From Gemmatimonadales bacterium (GTDB lineage: Bacteria; Gemmatimonadota; Gemmatimonadetes; Gemmatimonadales; GWC2-71-9): a stretch of 64,000 bases of DNA. The stretch lies in the NCBI GenBank assembly GCA_036394755.1, contig DASWEL010000002.1, positions 73,166 through 137,165 on the forward strand. Direction: 5' to 3'. Position numbers and translations under genes: made by a program. The notes beneath the pieces were generated by a model. That model did no database searches and was not told where the DNA came from. It was given only the letters and a program-made list of their open reading frames with translations. Each line of letters begins with the position of its first letter. Position 1 is the first letter of the stretch. Positions 8,173-23,243 of this stretch are shown here, piece by piece.

Positions 8173-8256
8173 GCCGAAGTGGTGGAACTGGTAGACGCGC
8201 TGGCTTCAGGAGCCAGTGGGCGCAAGCCCGTGGGGGTTCGAGTCCCCCCTTCGGCA
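8173..8256 (+). tRNA. tRNA-Leu (anticodon CAG)
   Basis: Acceptor GCCGAAG/CTTCGGC, anticodon stem CTGGC/GCCAG with loop TTCAGGA, long variable arm, T arm GGGGG-TTCGAGT-CCCCC, discriminator A; CCA not encoded. Confidence 0.85.
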
Positions 8257-8257
8257 C

Positions 8258-13745: not shown

Positions 13746-13930
13746 TCGGAGCAATCGCCGAGCGGATAGAGGAACCCGCAATTCCCACACGGGTTCTTGC
13801 AGCCCCAGGGCTTCGGCTGAACCTCGGCGCCGCACCGCAGGCACCGCGGCCGCGGCTTAGCCGATCCGGGAGACGCGGGTGAGGAAGGGATTGGTTTGGC
13901 GCTCCCGTCCGATGGTCGTTTCGGGTCCAT
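13742..13930 (-). CDS. Cysteine-rich micro-protein (zinc-ribbon-like), 62 aa
   Basis: ...RCLRCGAEVQPKPWGCKNPCGNCGFLYPLGDCSD; GC3 31/37 in the C-terminal part (hand count); its TGA overlaps the TTG start of the downstream membrane gene (TTGA); start uncertain (ATG 13930 or 13954, both inside the MBL gene). Confidence 0.45.
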   Translation of the reverse strand: MDPKRPSDGSAKPIPSSPASPGSAKPRPRCLRCGAEVQPKPWGCKNPCGNCGFLYPLGDCSD

Positions 13931-14498
13931 GTCCACTGTAGAGGATGGTATCATCGGGGAGCGGGAGCAACTCGCGCTCGATACTCGCGATTAGGGTCTC
14001 GAAATCAGCACCGGGCAGGTCGGTCCGGCCAATCGATCCGGCGAACAGGACGTCACCGCTGAACGCGACTCCCGGCCCGACCAGGCATACGCTTCCCGGC
14101 GAGTGACCGGGCGCATGCCGGACCTCGAAGCTCAAACCACCGGCCGTCACCCGCGTGCCGTGCGCCAAGTTCTGATCGGGGGCAGGCAGCGGTTCCGGCG
14201 GCTCGAGCCCAAACCACGCGGCCTGGTCCGGCACCGCGTCATAAAGAGGCCGGTCGGCGGGATGGAGCCAAACGGGAGCGCCCGTCTCCGCCGCGATCCT
14301 CGCCACGCCGAGGACATGGTCGATGTGCGCATGCGTCAGCCAAATGGCGACCGGCTTCGCGCCCGTTTCCTCGACCTTGTGCAGGATCAACCCGGCCTCT
14401 TCGCCGGGATCCACGATGGCGCACTCGTCGGCCCGTTCATCGACGACGAGATAGCAGTTCTCGGCGAACATGCCGTTGGGAATCGGAACGATCTTCAC
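13857..14498 (-). CDS. MBL-fold metallo-hydrolase (hydroxyacylglutathione hydrolase-like)
   Basis: ...WLTHAHIDHV... HxHxDH motif plus downstream His/Asp ligands, 213 aa. Confidence 0.85.
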   Translation of the reverse strand: MKIVPIPNGMFAENCYLVVDERADECAIVDPGEEAGLILHKVEETGAKPVAIWLTHAHIDHVLGVARIAAETGAPVWLHPADRPLYDAVPDQAAWFGLEPPEPLPAPDQNLAHGTRVTAGGLSFEVRHAPGHSPGSVCLVGPGVAFSGDVLFAGSIGRTDLPGADFETLIASIERELLPLPDDTILYSGHGPETTIGRERQTNPFLTRVSRIG

Positions 14499-15466
14499 TT
14501 CGTGCCTTTGCCGTCGCCCTGCTGCTCGCGCAGCGCCGTGAGGTACTTCTCGACCGCGATCGCCGCGGTCGTCGCGTCGCCCACCGCCGTCGTGATCTGC
14601 CGGGTGACCTGGCTGCGCACGTCGCCCGCGGCGAACAGTCCTGCCATCGACGTCATCATGCGATTGTCGGTGATGAGATAGCCGCCGGCATCGTGGTCCA
14701 CGTGGCCTTCGACCAGCTGGGTATTGGGCTTGAACCCTGCGAAGATGAACACTCCGCCGACGTCCAGATTCGAGCGTGCACCAGTCGCGTTGTCCTCGAG
14801 CACCGCATGGGTGACGCCCTTCACGTTCCCGACGATCTCGGGCACGACGGTGTTGCGAATGACCTCGATCTTGGCGTTCGCAAAAGCGCGCTCCTGCAGC
14901 AGCTTGGAGGCGCGGAATTCGTCGCGGCGGTGTACCAGGTGCACCTTGCTCGCGTAGCGCGTGAGGTAGTCGGCTTCCTCGACCGCGGCGTCGCCGCCCC
15001 CGACGACGGCGAGGCGCTCACCCTTGAAGAACGCGCCGTCGCACACCGCGCAATACGAGACGCCCTTTCCCGCATACTCTCGTTCGCCCGGCACGCCGAG
15101 CTTGATGGGTGTTCCGCCGGCGGTGAGGATCACCGCCTGGCTGCGGTAGGTGTCGCCTCGGGCGGTCTGCACGTCGAACCAGCCGTCGGCGTCCCTGCCG
15201 ATCCGCTCGACCGTATCGGTCACGATCTCGGCCCCGAACTTCTTGGCGTGCTCGGTCATCTTCTGCGCCAGCTCCCAGCCCTTGATGCTCTCGAAGCCGA
15301 TGTAGTCTTCGATGAGATCGGTATTGAGCAGCTCTCCACCCGGCGCGCCGCGCTCGATCGTGACCGCGTTCAGCATACCGCGGTGCGCGTACAGCGCGGC
15401 ACACAGCCCCGCCGGGCCTGCGCCCACGATGACCACGTCGTAGATGAGTGCGGTACGGTTCGTCAT
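14495..15466 (-). CDS. trxB: Thioredoxin-disulfide reductase
   Basis: ...VIVGAGPAGL..., redox CAVCDG, ...VVGGGDAAVEEA..., ...GLFAAGD... Confidence 0.9.
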   Translation of the reverse strand: MTNRTALIYDVVIVGAGPAGLCAALYAHRGMLNAVTIERGAPGGELLNTDLIEDYIGFESIKGWELAQKMTEHAKKFGAEIVTDTVERIGRDADGWFDVQTARGDTYRSQAVILTAGGTPIKLGVPGEREYAGKGVSYCAVCDGAFFKGERLAVVGGGDAAVEEADYLTRYASKVHLVHRRDEFRASKLLQERAFANAKIEVIRNTVVPEIVGNVKGVTHAVLEDNATGARSNLDVGGVFIFAGFKPNTQLVEGHVDHDAGGYLITDNRMMTSMAGLFAAGDVRSQVTRQITTAVGDATTAAIAVEKYLTALREQQGDGKGTK

Positions 15467-15807
15467 GCGTCCCGGAATTCCAGTCGCGGGGGGTCACCCT
15501 CCCCCGAAAGGGCGCGCGCCAGATGCGCACGAAACGTTACGGTTTCGAATTCAATGTCGGATCGCTGCGGCCCGGCCAGTTTCTCCAGCGCCGCCGCTCC
15601 AACGACGACGGTGCCGTGACGGTTCCCGCGGGCCTGATGCAGCAGCGCTGCGGCGGCTTGAATGAGACCCTGCCACACGCGTGCCTCCTCTTCCTTAATA
15701 ATAGAACGCCAGACTGTTTCCAACGCTTCGTGAGCCAACCAATACTCCCCAGAATTGAATAGCTCACGGGCGTGCTCTAGGTACCGGCGGCGGTCCTCTG
15801 GATTCAC
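15463..15807 (-). CDS. DUF309 domain protein
   Basis: ...YLEHARELFNSGEYWLAHEALETVWR...WQGLIQAAAALLHQARGN...; GTG at 15805-15807 overlaps upstream stop (GTGA); track start at 15870 is probably an extension. Confidence 0.7.
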   Translation of the reverse strand: MNPEDRRRYLEHARELFNSGEYWLAHEALETVWRSIIKEEEARVWQGLIQAAAALLHQARGNRHGTVVVGAAALEKLAGPQRSDIEFETVTFRAHLARALSGEGDPPRLEFRDA

Positions 15808-16544
15808 GTGCGTCGTGCGTCGTGCGTGGTGCGTGGACCCAGTTGCAGCAGGTTCAGCGCCCCATGACAACTGGATATCGTCCCGATAAGAATCTCGGCC
15901 GGGGCGCTGTCCGCACCCGCTTCCTCGACCAATCTGTCACCGGCGCGCACGGCATCTGCGGCGAACATGCCGACGCCAAAAACCTGATGCTTGCATACGA
16001 ACAATGCCGGCCCGGTCAGCGGCCGGCCCGAGGCACGCAACCGCGCCGCCAGCTCGCGCACCGAATCCGCCATCTCCCAAGTGCGCGGGGCGCCGATGGC
16101 CGGACACAACGCCGGCTCGATGCAATGCGTTGGACAGATCCAGTCCGCCCAGGAGACGTAGCGGGTGTGATCCGCTCTGCTCGGTCGGTCGTACGGCGTC
16201 GGGAAGTCTCCGGGGACCGGTTCGACCGAAACGGCGCGGTTCGGCCAGCGAGTGCGCGCGCGCCGCAGAACCCATTCGAACATCAGGTGCGGCATGTGGG
16301 GGGAGGGGACAATCTGATCGTCGGTCGGACGGTCGGACGGTCGGACGGTCAAAAACCCTTCAAAGAAATCCGCCCAATCTGAGACCACAAACGTGCGATC
16401 AGGAGCCGCTCCAAGCTCGCGTCTCGCCTGGCACTCCGGATTCCGATCCACCACCAGCACGGTGCGATAGTCAGTCTTCCCGCGCGCCTTGGCCTTCGCG
16501 AGCTGGGACGCGTAAAAGGTGCCATAGCATCCCCCGCCGACCAC
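15804..16544 (-). CDS. Uncharacterised protein with dinucleotide-binding-like N-terminus and Cys cluster
   Basis: (V)VGGGCYGTFYASQLAKA...; WICPTHCIEPALCP cluster; GTG 16542-16544 with GAGGG 8 nt upstream; the upstream 272 codons of the 518-aa track ORF overlap the SDR gene. Confidence 0.6.
   Translation of the reverse strand: MVGGGCYGTFYASQLAKAKARGKTDYRTVLVVDRNPECQARRELGAAPDRTFVVSDWADFFEGFLTVRPSDRPTDDQIVPSPHMPHLMFEWVLRRARTRWPNRAVSVEPVPGDFPTPYDRPSRADHTRYVSWADWICPTHCIEPALCPAIGAPRTWEMADSVRELAARLRASGRPLTGPALFVCKHQVFGVGMFAADAVRAGDRLVEEAGADSAPAEILIGTISSCHGALNLLQLGPRTTHDARRT
15807..15836. repeat. Tandem heptamer CGT(C/G)GTG, about 4 copies
   Basis: cgtg cgtcgtg cgtcgtg cgtggtg cgtgg at the junction of the 246-aa gene and the DUF309 gene. 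Confidence 0.9.
16323..16350. repeat. Tandem octamer GGTCGGAC x3.5
   Basis: ggtcggac ggtcggac ggtcggac ggtc inside the 246-aa gene. Confidence 0.9.
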
Positions 16545-16555
16545 GACGACGTCCC

Positions 16556-17287
16556 TCAGCGGATGAGTCTCCCTCCGTCGACGACCAGCACGGTACCCGT
16601 GACATAGTCGGTGCCGGCCAGGAGGAACCGCACCGCGGCGACGACATCGTCCGGGGACCCCAGACGCTCCAGCGGTGTCGTGGTGCGAATATGCTCTCGC
16701 GCCTTCTCGTCCCAGTCCTCCGGCAGGAGCACCGCGCCCGGTGCGACGCCATTGACGGCGACGTCCGGAGCCAGCGCCCGAGCCAGCGCTTTGGTCAGCA
16801 TGATGACGCCGGCTTTGCTGACGCAGTGCGGGACATAGGCCGGCCACGGCTCCATTCCCGCGATGTCGGCGATGTTCACGATCTTCCCCTTGGCGCGTCG
16901 CAGATGCGGGACGGCACCCTGCGAGACGAAAAACATCGCGCGCAGGTTGAGGTCGAGCGTCGCATCCCAGCTCCCGGGGGTCACGGTCTCCACCGGTTCG
17001 CGCACCATGATCGCGGCCGAGTTGATCACGACGTCGAGGCGTTTCAGGGCGCGGGCGGCCTGATCCGCGAGCCCGCGCGCGGCGGCGGCGTCGGTGAGAT
17101 CGGCCTGCAACAGCTCGGCGCGGCGACGCGCGCTCCGCACGGCTCGCGCGGTCTCCTCCGCACCCTTCGCCGAGCCGTGGTAGTGGATCGCCACGTCGCA
17201 GCCGGACTGTGCCAATCCGATCGCGATCGCCTGCCCGATCCGCGACCCGGCTCCAGTGACCAGCGCGGCTGCGCCCTCGAGCTGCAC
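16556..17287 (-). CDS. Short-chain dehydrogenase/reductase
   Basis: ...ALVTGAGSRIGQAIA... Rossmann motif, ...VVINSAA...; 243 aa. Confidence 0.85.
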   Translation of the reverse strand: MQLEGAAALVTGAGSRIGQAIAIGLAQSGCDVAIHYHGSAKGAEETARAVRSARRRAELLQADLTDAAAARGLADQAARALKRLDVVINSAAIMVREPVETVTPGSWDATLDLNLRAMFFVSQGAVPHLRRAKGKIVNIADIAGMEPWPAYVPHCVSKAGVIMLTKALARALAPDVAVNGVAPGAVLLPEDWDEKAREHIRTTTPLERLGSPDDVVAAVRFLLAGTDYVTGTVLVVDGGRLIR

Positions 17288-18012
17288 TAGTACGCTTTTC
17301 CGGTGATGGGGACGATCTGCCCGGTGATCGCGCTGGCTTCGTTGCTGGCGAGGAAGGCAACGGTGTTCACCACGTCGTCCAGCTCAACGAACGGTGTTTT
17401 GGAGTCCCCCATCTGCGCGACATTGTCCGCCGTCCGGACGGTCGCAGGCGCAACGGCGTTGACGCGGATGTCGGCGTCGCGATACTCGCGCGCCAGCTCG
17501 CGGGTGAGCCCGGCGACCGCCGATTTCGCCGCACTGTAGGCCGACATGTGCATGACGGGCCGGACCACCGCGATCGATGCGAAGTTGACGATGGATCCGC
17601 CACCTCGCGCGAGCAGCAACGGCACGGCTGCCTGGCACATGTAGAACGCAGTCTTGAAATTGACAGCCAGCTCGCGGTCGAGGATCTCGGCCTTCACTTC
17701 GGTGAACGGCCCGTAGCTGAAGAATCCCCCCGCCACGTTCACGAGGATATCGAGGCCTCCGTACTGCGCCTGCGCCGCGGCCGCCGCCGCGCGCCCGGCC
17801 TCGGGTTGGGTCAAGTCGCCGGCGGACGCTTTGGCGGTAATCCCTTCCGCCGCGAACTCCTTGATGCGGTCCGCGAGCCCTACGGCGTTGACGTCGGCGA
17901 GCAACAACTTGGCACCGGCGCGCCCCAAGCCGCGCGCCACCGCGTGGCCGATTTGCCCGACGCGGCCCACGCCCGTGACGAGCGCGACTTTCCCGCGCAG
18001 GTCAGGGGGCAC
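17287..18012 (-). CDS. Short-chain dehydrogenase/reductase (FabG-like)
   Basis: ...ALVTGVGRVGQIGHAVA..., ...LVNVAGG..., catalytic YSAAK. Confidence 0.85.
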   Translation of the reverse strand: MPPDLRGKVALVTGVGRVGQIGHAVARGLGRAGAKLLLADVNAVGLADRIKEFAAEGITAKASAGDLTQPEAGRAAAAAAQAQYGGLDILVNVAGGFFSYGPFTEVKAEILDRELAVNFKTAFYMCQAAVPLLLARGGGSIVNFASIAVVRPVMHMSAYSAAKSAVAGLTRELAREYRDADIRVNAVAPATVRTADNVAQMGDSKTPFVELDDVVNTVAFLASNEASAITGQIVPITGKAY

Positions 18013-18439
18013 GGACGATGTCGTCGACTGGCGGTGCGCCGCGCTGCGCGAAGCGCACCGTGCCGTCGCGGCCGATCACATAGACGGTACGCTGAATCCG
18101 CGCGCCGTCCTCCTTGAGCGCGTTGTACGCCCCGGCGATCGTGCGCTCCGGATCGGAGAGCAGGGGAAAGTTGAACTGCATCTTCTCGACGTAGCCGCGA
18201 TGGCTCTCGACGCTCGCGGGGTTTACGCCGAACGGCTGCATCTTTGCGGACTGGAACTTCTTGATCTCGTCGCGCACGGCGGAGAGTTGGCGGTTTCAGC
18301 CGGGGGTATTGTTGCCCGGATAGAACACCAGCGCGACCGGCCCGTCCTTCAACAGATCGCCGAGGACGTAGGTGCGGCCGTCCGACGCCTGGGCCTTGAA
18401 CGCGGGGGCTTTACTGCCGATCGGAAGCGGCTCGCTCAT
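18002..18439 (-). CDS. bcp: Bcp/PrxQ peroxiredoxin with in-frame TGA (18296-18298) at the peroxidatic Cys position; candidate selenoprotein
   Basis: Track ORFs 18296..18511 and 18002..18277 share one frame; joined product MSEPLPIGSKAPAF...VALVFYPGNNTPG[TGA]NRQLSAVRDEIKKF...FNFPLLSDP...TVYVIGRDGTV aligns with E. coli Bcp ...FYPKAMTPGCTVQACGLRD... Confidence 0.7.
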
Positions 18440-19373
18440 CCCGTTTCCTCGTTGTGAGCTCGAGGCGACGCTCGAGCGGTTCCAGCCAGGTATCGGGCAC
18501 GCGCATACCACCGAGTGGCGCGTGCGACTCCCCGTACTCGCTCTCGCCGTGCCAGTCCGACCCTCCCGTGATGCCGAGTCCCAGCCGCTCGGCGATGCGC
18601 ATCAACCGCTGCTCCACGGCGGGTGCGTGACTGGGGTGGCGGACCTCGACGCAGTCGAGTCCCTGGTCCTGAAAGATGCGGAGTTGGGCCTCGGTGCCGC
18701 GATCGCCCAGATGCGCCGCGACGGTGAGCCCACCCACGTCGTGCACGAGCGCGGTGACCTCGCCAAGCTTGGGCAGCGGCTTCTCGACGTACGCCGCCCG
18801 GCCGCGGCCCAGGTAACGGCGGAATGCGTCGCTGATGTTGTCGCACGCGCCGCAGTCGACGAGCGCTCGCGCCACGTGCGGCCGGCCCAGCGCCCCGCCG
18901 TCGCCGCCCAGGAGCTGCGCCTGGACGTCTTCCAGCTCGATCGCGACGCCGAGGTCTTGGAGCTTGGCCACGATCTGCTCGCCTCGCAGTCGGCGCGCGG
19001 CGCGCGTGTCGCGGAGAAAGGTCTGGAGACCCTCGTGCACATACGGCAGAAACAGCGCGAGGACGTGGAGCTCGCCCCACGGCGCACGCACGCTGAATTC
19101 GCAGCCCGGAATGATGCGCACGCCCAGCTTTGCGCCTTCTTGCGCGGCTTCCGCGACCCCGTCCGTCGTGTCGTGATCGGTGAGCGCGATCGCCGCCAGG
19201 TCAACCGCGCGGGCGCGGCGCGCCACCTCCTGCGGCTCGCACTCGCCGTCCGAGGCCGTCGAATGACAATGCAGGTCAATGTGCGGCGTAATCGACCTCG
19301 GGGGCGGTCCACGCCGGCTGCGATTGGCGGAACAGCTCCAGCAGCTCGCGGTCGGAGAGCTCCAGGAAGGCAC
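18411..19373 (-). CDS. PHP-domain metal-dependent phosphoesterase (TrpH/YciV-like)
   Basis: ...HIDLHCHSTASDGE...ALTDHDT... PHP ligands; true start uncertain (no canonical start codon between 19373 and the first His motif; the 5' 98 nt overlap the upstream ORF). Confidence 0.75.
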   Translation of the reverse strand: MPSWSSPTASCWSCSANRSRRGPPPRSITPHIDLHCHSTASDGECEPQEVARRARAVDLAAIALTDHDTTDGVAEAAQEGAKLGVRIIPGCEFSVRAPWGELHVLALFLPYVHEGLQTFLRDTRAARRLRGEQIVAKLQDLGVAIELEDVQAQLLGGDGGALGRPHVARALVDCGACDNISDAFRRYLGRGRAAYVEKPLPKLGEVTALVHDVGGLTVAAHLGDRGTEAQLRIFQDQGLDCVEVRHPSHAPAVEQRLMRIAERLGLGITGGSDWHGESEYGESHAPLGGMRVPDTWLEPLERRLELTTRKRDERAASDRQ

Positions 19374-19548: not shown

Positions 19549-19869
19549 TTATGCCTGCGACGTGGTGGCGACGGGAACCTCGCTCCACAACTCCCACGCG
19601 TCGGGCGCGTAGGTCGCCAGCGCCTGGAGGCGCTTCTCGAGCTTGATCTCTTCCGGTAGCCGCGAGGCCTGAGCGCGGTGCGACATCTCGGTCGGGCTCT
19701 CGGAGAACTCGATGAACAGCCGCGGATCCTTCGCGTTCCGGTACAACCAGATCCGCTGGCCGCGCGCTTCGGCGAACTGACTCAGCTCGCGCAGCGTGTT
19801 GACGTACTCCGTCTCGTTCTGGCTAGGCACGCGCACACGCGCGGCGGTCAGCACTTTCGGCATCTTCAC
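19549..19869 (-). CDS. Hypothetical protein, 106 aa
   Basis: GTG start overlaps E2 stop (GTGA); no family recognised. Confidence 0.55.
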   Translation of the reverse strand: MKMPKVLTAARVRVPSQNETEYVNTLRELSQFAEARGQRIWLYRNAKDPRLFIEFSESPTEMSHRAQASRLPEEIKLEKRLQALATYAPDAWELWSEVPVATTSQA

Positions 19870-21197
19870 ACCGCTCCCTCGGGAAACTCCTGCAACAGTT
19901 TCTTGACGTCGGCCAAGAACTTGTCGGCGTCCGCGCCGTCCACAACGCGATGATCGTAGGACATCGTGAGCATCCCCATCGTGCGGATCGCGATGGAATC
20001 CGTGCCGTCGGCGGCGGTCACGACCTTCGGGCGTTTCTCGATCGCGCCGACGCCGAGAATCGCCACCTGCGGCTGGTTGATGATGGGAATGCCGGCGAAC
20101 GGCCCGAAACCGCCGGGATTGGTGATCGTGAACGTGCCGCGCTGAATGTCGTCGGGCAACAGCTTCTTGGTGCGGGCGCGCTCCCCGAGATCATTGATGG
20201 CGCGCGCGATGCCGATCAGCGACAGCTCGTCGGCGTGCTTGATCACCGGCACGATGAGACCCCAGTCGAGCGCCACCGCGATCCCGACGTTGACGTCCGC
20301 ACGATAGATCGTGCTGTCGCCGGACACGGCGGCATTGACGATGGGATGCTTTCGCAGATTCTCGGCACACGCCTTCGCGATGAACGCGAGGAACGTGAGG
20401 GTCACGCCCCGCTCGGCATAGGACTGCTTCGCTTTGGCGCGGAACTGTGCGACGCGCGTGAAATCGACCTCGAAGAAGCTTGCGACGTGCGCGGACACGC
20501 GCTTCGACATCACCATGTGGTCGGCGGTGATCTTGCGGATCTTGGACCACGGCTCGACGCGGTCGCCCGGCCAGGGCTCGACGGTCGGATGCTCGACGGC
20601 GCCGGCAGGGCTTGGGGCTTGGGGCCTCGGGGTTGGGGCGGTCGGTGCACGTTCGATGTAGCCCAAAATGTCCTGCTTCGTCACACGACCGGCGTACCCA
20701 CTGCCGGGGATGCGTGAGATGTCGACGCTATGCTCGGCGGCGATTTTCCGGACCAGTGGCGTGGACTTCGTGCGGAGGCGTTGCTCGGCCGTCTGCACGT
20801 CACCACCATCACCGTCGGCCGGACGGCCCGACGGCCGGACGGCCGGCGCGGCAGCGGCCTTCGCCGGCTCAGCCTTGGGAGCCGGAGGCGCCGAAGGCGG
20901 CGGTGCCGCGGCCTTCGGTGGCTCCGGTTTCGCGGGCGCCGGGACCGCCGCCCCGGCTTCCGTTTCCAAGACCCCGACGACCGTCTGCACGGGTACGGTT
21001 TGCCCTTGCTGCACTTTGATCTCCGCGAGGACGCCGGCGGCCGGTGCCGGGATTTCGGCATCGACCTTGTCGGTCGAGATCTCGAACAGCGGCTCGTCCC
21101 GCTTGACGGGGTCGCCGACCTTCTTGAGCCATTTGCTCAACGTGCCTTCGGCGATGGACTCGCCCATCTGGGGCATGAGTACGTCTACGCGTGCCAT
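19866..21197 (-). CDS. 2-oxo-acid dehydrogenase E2 (dihydrolipoamide acyltransferase)
   Basis: Lipoyl domain ...LFEISTDKVDAEIPAP..., Ala/Pro linker, E3-binding segment, catalytic ...MSYDHRVVDGA... Confidence 0.9.
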   Translation of the reverse strand: MARVDVLMPQMGESIAEGTLSKWLKKVGDPVKRDEPLFEISTDKVDAEIPAPAAGVLAEIKVQQGQTVPVQTVVGVLETEAGAAVPAPAKPEPPKAAAPPPSAPPAPKAEPAKAAAAPAVRPSGRPADGDGGDVQTAEQRLRTKSTPLVRKIAAEHSVDISRIPGSGYAGRVTKQDILGYIERAPTAPTPRPQAPSPAGAVEHPTVEPWPGDRVEPWSKIRKITADHMVMSKRVSAHVASFFEVDFTRVAQFRAKAKQSYAERGVTLTFLAFIAKACAENLRKHPIVNAAVSGDSTIYRADVNVGIAVALDWGLIVPVIKHADELSLIGIARAINDLGERARTKKLLPDDIQRGTFTITNPGGFGPFAGIPIINQPQVAILGVGAIEKRPKVVTAADGTDSIAIRTMGMLTMSYDHRVVDGADADKFLADVKKLLQEFPEGAV

Positions 21198-21207
21198 TGG
21201 ATCTCCG

Positions 21208-22191
21208 TCAGTACGCCGCCAACCAGCGGGCGGCTTTCACGATGTCTTCCGTCTGCGGCAACACGAAGTCCTCGAGCGTCGGCGCATACGGCAGCGGCAC
21301 GTCGTGCGCGGTGACGCGCATGATCGGGCCGTCGAGCCATTCGAACGCCTGCTCGTTGATCCGCGCCGCGATCTCCCCCGCGATCCCACCGGTCCGCGTG
21401 TCTTCGTGCACGATGAGGACCTTGTTCGTCTTCTTCACGGTCGCGACGATCGCGGCGTCGTCCATCGGCAGCAGGGTCCGGAGGTCCAGCACTTCGACCG
21501 ACACGCCGTCCACCTTCTCGAGCTGCTCGGCCGCCTCGAGCGATTTCCAGAGCGTGGCCCCGTAGCTAATGATGGAAAGATGCTTCCCTTCGCGCGCCGT
21601 GCGCGCCCGCCCGATCGGCGTGAGAATCTCCTCACCCTCCGGCAGCTGCTCCTTGATGCGCCGGTACAGCCATTTGTGCTCGAGATAGAGCACCGGATCC
21701 TCGTCGCGAATCGACGCTTTGATGAGACCTTTCGCGTCCCGCGCGGTTGCCGGATAGACGATCTTCAGACCGGGCGTGTGAAGGAATGCCGCTTCGGGAT
21801 TCTGTGAATGGAACGGCCCGCCGCGAACGTAACCGCCGCAGGGGCCGCGCACCACCATCGGCGTCGACAGCCCGGCACGGTAACGCGCCGTGGCCACGTA
21901 GTTGGTGAGCATATCGTACGCGCACGAAATGAAGTCGATGAACTGCATCTCGGCGACCGGCCGCAGCCCCATGTGCGCCGCCCCCGCGGCCGCTCCCACG
22001 ATCGCGGCCTCGGAGATCGGCGTGTCGATCACGCGGGACGCGCCGAAACGCTTGCTGAAGCCGTCGGTCACCTTGAACGCGCCGCCGTACAACCCGACAT
22101 CCTCGCCGAGGATGAAGACGCGCTCGTCACGCTCCATCTCTTCCCAGAGACCCTGGCGCAACGCTTCGAGAAAAGTGACTTCGGCCATCAC
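21208..22191 (-). CDS. 2-oxo-acid dehydrogenase E1 beta subunit
   Basis: 327 aa; ...VFILGEDVGLYGGAFKVT...VIDTPISEAAIVGAA... transketolase-like pyrimidine-binding domain. Confidence 0.9.
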   Translation of the reverse strand: MMAEVTFLEALRQGLWEEMERDERVFILGEDVGLYGGAFKVTDGFSKRFGASRVIDTPISEAAIVGAAAGAAHMGLRPVAEMQFIDFISCAYDMLTNYVATARYRAGLSTPMVVRGPCGGYVRGGPFHSQNPEAAFLHTPGLKIVYPATARDAKGLIKASIRDEDPVLYLEHKWLYRRIKEQLPEGEEILTPIGRARTAREGKHLSIISYGATLWKSLEAAEQLEKVDGVSVEVLDLRTLLPMDDAAIVATVKKTNKVLIVHEDTRTGGIAGEIAARINEQAFEWLDGPIMRVTAHDVPLPYAPTLEDFVLPQTEDIVKAARWLAAY

Positions 22192-23243
22192 AACCCTTTG
22201 AACCAGAGCTTGTCAGCAGCCGGCGGATCGACGTAGACGCCGGGCAACGCGCTCTCGGCCAGCGGCAACGGCTCATCCACACACGCGTCCGTCGCCTGAT
22301 CCACTTCGACGCGCACGCGATCGTCGATGTCCTTCAGATCCGTCTCGGCGACCATGTCAGCGGCGAGCAGACGCTGCACGTAGCGATCGACGGGATCGTT
22401 CGCCTTCGCCCACTGCTCCAGCTCACCCTGCGGCACGTAGTGCTGATCGTCGTGCTCGGCGTGACCCTTGCGGCGATAGGTCTTCACCTCGACGAAGTGC
22501 ACCCCTTTGCCGCGGCGGGCACGCTCCACCGCAACCCGCGTCGCTTCGTAGACCGCGAACACGTCGTTGCCGTCCACCATCACCGACGGGACGCCATATC
22601 CCTTGGCCTTCTCAGCGAGGTCCTTCACGGCGAACTGCTTCGCGGGCGGCGTGGAGTACGCCCAATGGTTGTACTCGCCGATCACGACGAGCGGGAGCCG
22701 CTGGACGGCGGCGAGGTTCAGGCCCTCATGAAAGGTGCCGGTCGACGTGCCGCCGTCGCCGATGTACACGAGCCCGACGCGCGGCTCGGCGCGCAGCTTG
22801 AAGCTCAGCGCGATCCCCGCCATCACCGGGATCATGTCGCCCAGGTGCGAGATCTGGCCGAGGTAGCCCTTCTCGAGGTCGTTGAAATGGACGTTCAGCT
22901 CGCGGCCGCGGGTGGGGCTGTCGGCCTTGGCCATGTACTGCCGCAAGATCTCGACCGGCCGGGCTCCCATCACGAGCAGCGACCCGAGGTTGCGGATGAG
23001 CGGCGACAGTACGTCCTTGTGCCGGCCGCGCTCCAGCGCATACGCCGAGGCGACAGATTCCCCCTCTTGCCCCAGCGAACGGAACAGCCCGCCGATGACC
23101 TTGGTCTGGCGGTACAGCGCCACCAGGCGCTCTTCCAGCGTCCGGGTCAGCCGAAGATAGTAGTAGATCTCGAGAAGCTGGTCCGACGAGAGCACCGCCC
23201 CGGCGGGGATGGCGCCAGTCGGGCGCGTCGCAGGAAGAGCCAT
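22188..23243 (-). CDS. 2-oxo-acid dehydrogenase E1 alpha subunit (TPP-dependent)
   Basis: 351 aa; TPP motif ...YIGDGGTSTGTFHEGLNLAA...IGEYNHWAYSTP... Confidence 0.9.
   Translation of the reverse strand: MALPATRPTGAIPAGAVLSSDQLLEIYYYLRLTRTLEERLVALYRQTKVIGGLFRSLGQEGESVASAYALERGRHKDVLSPLIRNLGSLLVMGARPVEILRQYMAKADSPTRGRELNVHFNDLEKGYLGQISHLGDMIPVMAGIALSFKLRAEPRVGLVYIGDGGTSTGTFHEGLNLAAVQRLPLVVIGEYNHWAYSTPPAKQFAVKDLAEKAKGYGVPSVMVDGNDVFAVYEATRVAVERARRGKGVHFVEVKTYRRKGHAEHDDQHYVPQGELEQWAKANDPVDRYVQRLLAADMVAETDLKDIDDRVRVEVDQATDACVDEPLPLAESALPGVYVDPPAADKLWFKGL

Follow-up and report, generated by a model that had tools for sequence, protein, structure and literature searches.

A 64,000-nucleotide stretch of the genome of a Gemmatimonadales bacterium (GenBank assembly GCA_036394755.1, contig DASWEL010000002.1, forward-strand positions 73,166 to 137,165; hereafter the window) was analysed for a peroxiredoxin gene that is interrupted by an in-frame TGA. 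The gene, on the minus strand at 18002..18439, is read here as encoding one 145-residue peroxiredoxin of the Bcp/PrxQ type with selenocysteine (Sec) as the peroxidatic residue (U48), a reading to which a probability of roughly 0.88 was assigned from the sequence and its relatives. The TGA falls exactly on the codon of the catalytic Cys, is conserved across related loci in which both flanks evolve as coding sequence, is exchanged for TGC in a small number of orthologues, and is followed by a block of strong synonymous-site constraint that accompanies the TGA and drifts in its absence. The gene is almost certainly a genuine selenoprotein gene, predicted to be of the already known Sec-peroxiredoxin type, as had been proposed in an initial annotation made from the letters of the window without database searches.

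Reading frame and active site

The open reading frame (ORF) list of the window contained two pieces, 18296..18511 and 18002..18277, which the initial annotation had placed in one minus-strand frame and had described as separated only by a TGA and six sense codons. Translation and the ORF list confirmed this. The frame runs from ATG 18439-18437 through the internal TGA at 18298-18296 to a terminal TGA at 18004-18002 and comprises 145 codons; the internal TGA is the sole in-frame TGA ahead of the terminal stop, and the six codons between it and GTG 18277 are AAC CGC CAA CTC TCC GCC. The read-through product, MSEPLPIG...YPGNNTPG-[TGA]-NRQLSAVRDE..., is 145 residues long, and its assignment to Bcp was upheld by a match to Pfam AhpC-TSA (PF00578; 1.2e-32, 112.9 bits against a cut-off of 26, residues 7-130 of 145), by Bcp/PrxQ chains as its nearest solved structures (8e-16 to 1e-11; the top PDB matches also include Rv2238c), and by the full-length, single-frame conservation of orthologues. 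A composition-filtered scan of the 64-kb window found no protein-like gene with an in-frame TGA other than the peroxiredoxin.

The TGA (18296..18298, minus strand) is codon 48 in Y-P-G-N-N-T-P-G-[TGA]-N-R-Q-L-S and corresponds to the Cys of the peroxiredoxin PxxxTxxC motif, which here would read P41-x3-T45-x2-U48. Every full-length database homologue has TPGCNRQL where the query has TGA, and the TPGC of the solved Bcp/PrxQ proteins 5enu, 3drn, 5epf and 2cx3 aligns at the same point, so the stop lies precisely where it had been claimed to lie, on the catalytic Cys. Arg117 is invariant in the homologue alignment and pairs with the Arg of IERS in 5enu. At +5, where E. coli-type Bcp carries its resolving Cys, the residue is Ser53 in all 164 TGA forms described below, in agreement with the Ser initially read from the window, and the read-through peroxiredoxin contains no Cys at all. 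With no resolving Cys at +5 and no other Cys, the mechanism would be of the 1-Cys type. Two of the Cys orthologues (L087:1364-1807 and L088:3001-3429) were observed to have a second Cys five residues on (CNRQLC), the atypical 2-Cys PrxQ arrangement.

None of the NCBIfam equivalog cut-offs was reached by the peroxiredoxin, the protein being a member of the family and not an equivalog of a named model. The best match was the Bcp model NF006960 (63.4 bits, below the cut-off of 140), with NF053650 at 48 bits against 260 and the PrxU model NF040737 (233 positions) at 38.2 bits against 270.

Conservation of the TGA codon

Related loci were fetched (173 in total), of which 163 carried TGA at the codon (80 species genomes, 77 soil-metagenome contigs and 6 further contigs) and 10 carried TGC (three from the metagenome scan and seven via exact-protein look-ups). 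With the window included, there were 164 TGA forms, which represent 157 different sequences when compared over 210 nt. TGA was present in 80/80 loci when one genome was taken per species (metagenome-assembled genomes of Gemmatimonadales/Gemmatimonadota, 69-97% amino-acid identity) and in 77 of the 80 contigs of the metagenome scan, the remaining three being Cys forms. Mean column entropies at codon positions 1, 2 and 3 were 0.47, 0.38 and 1.20 bits upstream of the TGA and 0.41, 0.31 and 1.12 bits downstream of it, and this pattern on both sides shows that a single coding frame is maintained in evolution across the two halves. In a protein search, full-length Cys homologues were found at no more than 74% identity, together with many 91-residue clusters at 83-99% that start exactly at the post-TGA GTG. 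Exchange of Cys and Sec codons at a redox-active site, named in the initial annotation as the hallmark of bacterial selenoproteins, was thus found at this position itself, as 164 TGA and 10 TGC forms in the same operon.

The constrained block and candidate selenocysteine insertion sequence

The 32 nt directly 3' of the UGA (18264..18295, minus strand; AACCGNCAACUCUCCGCCGUGCGCGAYGAGAU) were delimited by their synonymous-site invariance and are proposed as the region of the selenocysteine insertion sequence (SECIS). Third-position entropy over codons +1 to +10 was 0.12 bits, versus 1.12-1.20 in the remaining gene; when only codons for invariant amino acids were compared, the values were 0.11 versus 1.02 bits (Mann-Whitney p = 5e-4). 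Two sites of the block vary, one in the spacer and one at an unpaired base. The Gln at +3 is encoded by the rare codon CAA in nearly all TGA forms, the other Gln codons of the gene being CAG.

Within the block, RNAalifold and RNAfold gave a core hairpin, CUC-UC-CGC-[CGUGC]-GCG-AY-GAG, at 18266..18286 (minus strand, loop 18278-18274). A hairpin had been noted downstream of the TGA from the outset; it is present, and its register is 18286-18266 and not 18285-18265 as first given. The 21 nt are the same in 164/164 TGA forms except at the unpaired Y (18269), and, when the first 39 nt were folded, the outer CUC/GAG stem was in the minimum-energy structure of 164/164 sequences. In an alternative fold, a CGU loop is closed by a stem of 8 pairs that carries two bulges, and the variable base is unpaired in both folds. 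The loop begins 17 nt past the UGA; it measures 5 nt in the core hairpin and 3 nt in the alternative fold, and its second and third bases are G-U. The published criteria for a bacterial SECIS (bSECIS), as quoted in PMC13188914, are a loop size of 3-9 nt, G within the first two bases of the loop, a spacing of 16-37 nt and a minimum free energy (MFE) of -7.5 kcal/mol or lower; loop size, G position and UGA spacing of the window hairpin all lie within the three geometric ranges. The position is likewise that expected of a bacterial SECIS, as originally remarked, and the hairpin forms the core of the 32-nt block, whose invariance at synonymous sites is confined to TGA forms.

In many orthologues the hairpin is extended by a lower stem in which GCCA of the spacer pairs with UGGC of codons +11 and +12 (variants GUCA/UGAC and CAA/UUG). 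This stem brings the element to approximately -14 kcal/mol, and 76% of the TGA forms pass the energy threshold at 39 nt. In the window, codons +11 and +12 are AUC AAG, and the lower stem is absent. The case for the candidate SECIS at this site rests on position, geometry and synonymous-site invariance, and not on covariation. Because the hairpin keeps one sequence across 164 genes with protein identities as low as approximately 66% and is of sub-threshold stability in many members, the window included, it is conceivable, though doubtful, that Sec insertion in Gemmatimonadales uses a distinct, sequence-specific mini-SECIS, with SelB reading base identity along the whole 21-nt hairpin and not a generic stem-loop.

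Cys orthologues

The TGC forms were used as a control for the constraint on the block. Where their flanks are visible, a PHP gene lies upstream and an SDR gene downstream, as in the TGA operon. Their block varies at both synonymous and non-synonymous sites (CAG for CAA; CUG/CUU; UCG/UGC/GCC; GUC/GUA/GUU/GCG/GCC), they carry GAU, GAC or GCG where the TGA forms have GAG, and the hairpin cannot form in most of them. Since the block is kept in TGA forms and drifts in TGC forms, the constraint is tied to the TGA.

Among the Cys forms nearest to the TGA clade, the block is intact in L167:301-759 and has one or two changes in L169:301-750 and L170:301-747; in more distant Cys forms it is lost. In a neighbour-joining tree (arbitrary root, no bootstrap), L169 nests among TGA forms. 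These features suggest that the three genes are recent Sec-to-Cys conversions in which a former SECIS would be decaying, and Cys orthologues with a near-intact block provide a natural series in which such conversion and decay could be followed.

Probable selenocysteine decoding in the lineage

A composition-filtered scan of all loci found a second recurrent gene with an in-frame TGA, approximately 5 kb from the peroxiredoxin, in 12 related loci (L045:14644-15183, L053:14917-15456, L061:10431-10970, L063, L066, L067 (minus strand), L070, L071 and L075-L078). It encodes a protein of the AhpD/CMD family of approximately 180 residues (PF02627, 9.3e-12; TIGR00778 above cut-off) with the motif C-R-Y-[TGA]-L-N-S-H (CxxU), the TGA being present in 12/12 loci. 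Its predicted SECIS has a 7-bp stem, CUGUCUU-GGC-AAGACAG, and lower stems, amounting to 13 pairs, 3 of which show compensatory double changes; the GGC loop begins 20 nt past the UGA, and the MFE is -20.2 kcal/mol (z -3.8). Selenoproteins of the AhpD-like CxxU type have been described before as a family (PMC1088965). The occurrence of this gene with a covarying SECIS in 12 loci is a separate line of evidence that relatives in the clade decode Sec.

Contrary evidence and alternative explanations

Several observations weigh against Sec at codon 48. The window hairpin has a free energy of -6.2 kcal/mol (z -0.4), weaker than the bSECIS criterion; the RNA fold proposed in the initial annotation thus agreed with its description of the stem as weak. 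The minimum-energy fold of 81 nt of the window alone did not pick out the hairpin (z -0.97). All six core pairs are invariant, and covariation therefore speaks neither for nor against the fold. The lower stem is present in approximately 55-60% of distinct sequences, which is not above shuffled controls, and the one lower-stem pair with 3 compensatory cells was no better than these controls. No tRNA-Sec was found in the window, where ARAGORN and Rfam gave tRNA-Leu only, and selA, selB, selD and tRNA-Sec were not found by ARAGORN and motif scans in the window plus 80 loci (1.27 Mb). By tblastn, the AhpD-like second TGA gene is not in the 64-kb window. Measured against the bSECIS consensus (bSECISearch; E. 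coli fdhF and fdnG), the window element agrees in its site in the coding sequence after the UGA, in a loop of 3-5 nt with G then U and in the 17-nt spacing, and departs from it in missing the -7.5 kcal/mol limit.

The alternative that survives best concerns the block alone, which could be some other signal (a small-RNA target, a protein-binding site or an antisense element) with the Sec signal elsewhere. It is considered improbable. A core hairpin of modest stability, with no covariation and no Rfam match (18150-18400, E <= 10), would be compatible with such a signal, but the block runs from the UGA to the 3' end of the hairpin, variation in it is confined to two sites, one in the spacer and one at the unpaired base, and it is conserved only together with TGA and drifts in the TGC orthologues. 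RNAalifold found no other conserved structure from -60 to +120.

Division of the locus into two small genes, or a truncated gene, with a 47-residue peptide ending at the TGA and a 91-residue protein starting from GTG 18277, was judged very improbable. It is how the gene stands in every public gene call examined: those of ENA and NCBI split it into 47-aa and 91-aa products in 6/6 contigs (L081-L086), and many JGI, ENA and NCBI protein clusters (among P0032-P0120) are 91-residue pieces. Moreover, the six codons from TGA to GTG are nucleotide-invariant, and the conservation of their amino acids is no independent proof of translation. However, the catalytic residue would be in neither piece, the two pieces share a frame in 164/164 loci, where the stop coincides exactly with the codon that specifies Cys in the orthologues, and the Cys orthologues of the same operon are single proteins of 147-152 residues. 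The GUG that gene callers take as the start of the spurious 91-aa ORF (18275..18277, minus strand, in the ORF list) is inside the hairpin loop, and no GGAGG-like ribosome-binding site is present in the preceding 18 nt (AACCGCCAACUCUCCGCC).

Marginally less probable again is read-through of the UGA without Sec, by a near-cognate or suppressor tRNA inserting Trp, Cys or Gly or by reassignment of UGA in the lineage. The Sec machinery not found in the window and the related loci scanned, and a window hairpin below the usual SECIS energy threshold, would be in keeping with this. Against it, the terminal stop is TGA in 153/163 of these same genes, so that the code is not reassigned and decoding of the internal TGA depends on local context. 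In addition, homologues have a redox-active Cys at the position, the constrained 3' block is specific to TGA forms, and the second gene of the relatives has its TGA at a CxxC-type Cys together with a covarying, canonical SECIS.

Sequencing or assembly error and a decaying pseudogene, for which nothing speaks beyond a stop codon inside a conserved domain, are of negligible probability and are excluded: the in-frame stop is real, because short- and long-read assemblies show the TGA in 163 independent loci, purifying selection acts on both flanks, no related locus has a frameshift or second internal stop, and Cys orthologues lie in the same operon. The alignment of orthologues proposed in the initial annotation accordingly gave TGA in 163/173 related loci and TGC in 10/173, with neither TGC in the sister genomes, sampled by species, nor further decay of the gene.

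Proposed mechanism

Under the preferred reading of a Sec-containing peroxiredoxin, the UGA at 18298-18296 would be decoded by Sec-tRNA(Sec), delivered by SelB bound to a coding-sequence SECIS just downstream whose core is predicted to be the hairpin CUCUCCGCCGUGCGCGAYGAG; the terminal TGA, without such an element, would end translation. Termination at UGA48 probably competes with Sec insertion. In the enzyme, the selenolate would attack the peroxide to give a selenenic acid, an intermediate that Thr45 and Arg117 would hold. Since the peroxiredoxin lacks a resolving Cys and any other Cys, an external thiol would be needed for its regeneration; the most likely one is thioredoxin, which would receive electrons from the thioredoxin reductase encoded at a distance of 2.5 kb.

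Comparison with known systems and significance

Sec-peroxiredoxins with TxxU (PF00578/COG1225) are an established family, described from genomes and marine metagenomes by the Zhang and Gladyshev groups and abundant in the latter (PMC1088965, PMC5029168, PMC13188914), and the earlier statement that they form a known class is borne out by PMC1088965 and PMC13188914. The gene of the window resembles this family in its AhpC/TSA fold, in the predicted Sec at the peroxidatic PxxxTxxU position, in its widespread Cys homologues and in a SECIS-like hairpin with G in a small apical loop just past the UGA. Unlike the described family, it belongs to a soil Gemmatimonadales clade, has an unusually short and sequence-invariant hairpin, and reaches no NCBIfam cut-off. 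PrxU of Eubacterium acidaminophilum (Sohling et al. 2001, cited in PMC13188914), with which knowledge of Sec-peroxiredoxins with TxxU began, is a thioredoxin-dependent peroxiredoxin with an experimentally shown peroxidatic Sec; the same role is predicted here from sequence for U48, in a protein that is of another peroxiredoxin subfamily (38 bits versus 270 on NF040737). With the Cys-containing Bcp/PrxQ proteins (E. coli Bcp; 5enu, 3drn, 5epf, 2cx3) the product shares the motif position, the conserved Arg and a length of approximately 150 residues, and it differs from them in the predicted peroxidatic Sec, in Ser at +5 and in having no other Cys.

A literature search found no paper in the library covered that links Gemmatimonadota to Sec. 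The in-frame TGA is present in more than 160 assemblies from an abundant soil phylum, and what is probably a real, conserved antioxidant enzyme is annotated in fragments. The data indicate that soil Gemmatimonadales use Sec, with nearly all sampled loci having the Sec and not the Cys form at the catalytic site, and such use would tie a major soil lineage to selenium availability. The interest is modest, and for specialists the result is useful more than surprising; it lies in the consistent splitting of the gene by public gene calls, the prevalence of the Sec form over the Cys form in an abundant soil lineage and an unusually small, invariant SECIS candidate.

Gene neighbourhood

All genes described here are on the minus strand. 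Upstream, a gene for a PHP-domain phosphoesterase (18411..19226; PF02811, 26.6 bits against a cut-off of 26.4) overlaps the start of the peroxiredoxin gene by 29 nt (18411-18439), which is consistent with the two genes lying in one operon. Downstream, the GTG start of a gene for an SDR oxidoreductase (17287..18012; PF00106, PF13561) overlaps the peroxiredoxin stop by 11 nt, and overlap on both flanks suggests translational coupling within one operon. This PHP-peroxiredoxin-SDR order is conserved in L081-L086 and beside the Cys forms. Further downstream are genes for a second SDR (16556-17287), a DUF309 protein (15463-15870), a thioredoxin-disulfide reductase with a CAVC motif (14495..15466; TIGR01292, 358.6 bits against a cut-off of 343.45) and an MBL-fold hydrolase (13857-14498). 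Profile matches thus bore out the redox block of trxB, DUF309 and two SDR genes that had been described initially.

The genes for the E1-alpha, E1-beta and E2 components of a 2-oxoacid dehydrogenase lie upstream at 19866-23243. In the nearest relatives (L081:39-3561), genes for a cupredoxin, a copper-type P-type ATPase and an HMA-domain protein were observed upstream of the 2-oxoacid dehydrogenase genes; by gene order, the counterpart of this region in the window would fall beyond 23243. The only tRNA gene of the window, tRNA-Leu(CAG) at 8173-8257, recurs in 25 of the scanned sequences.

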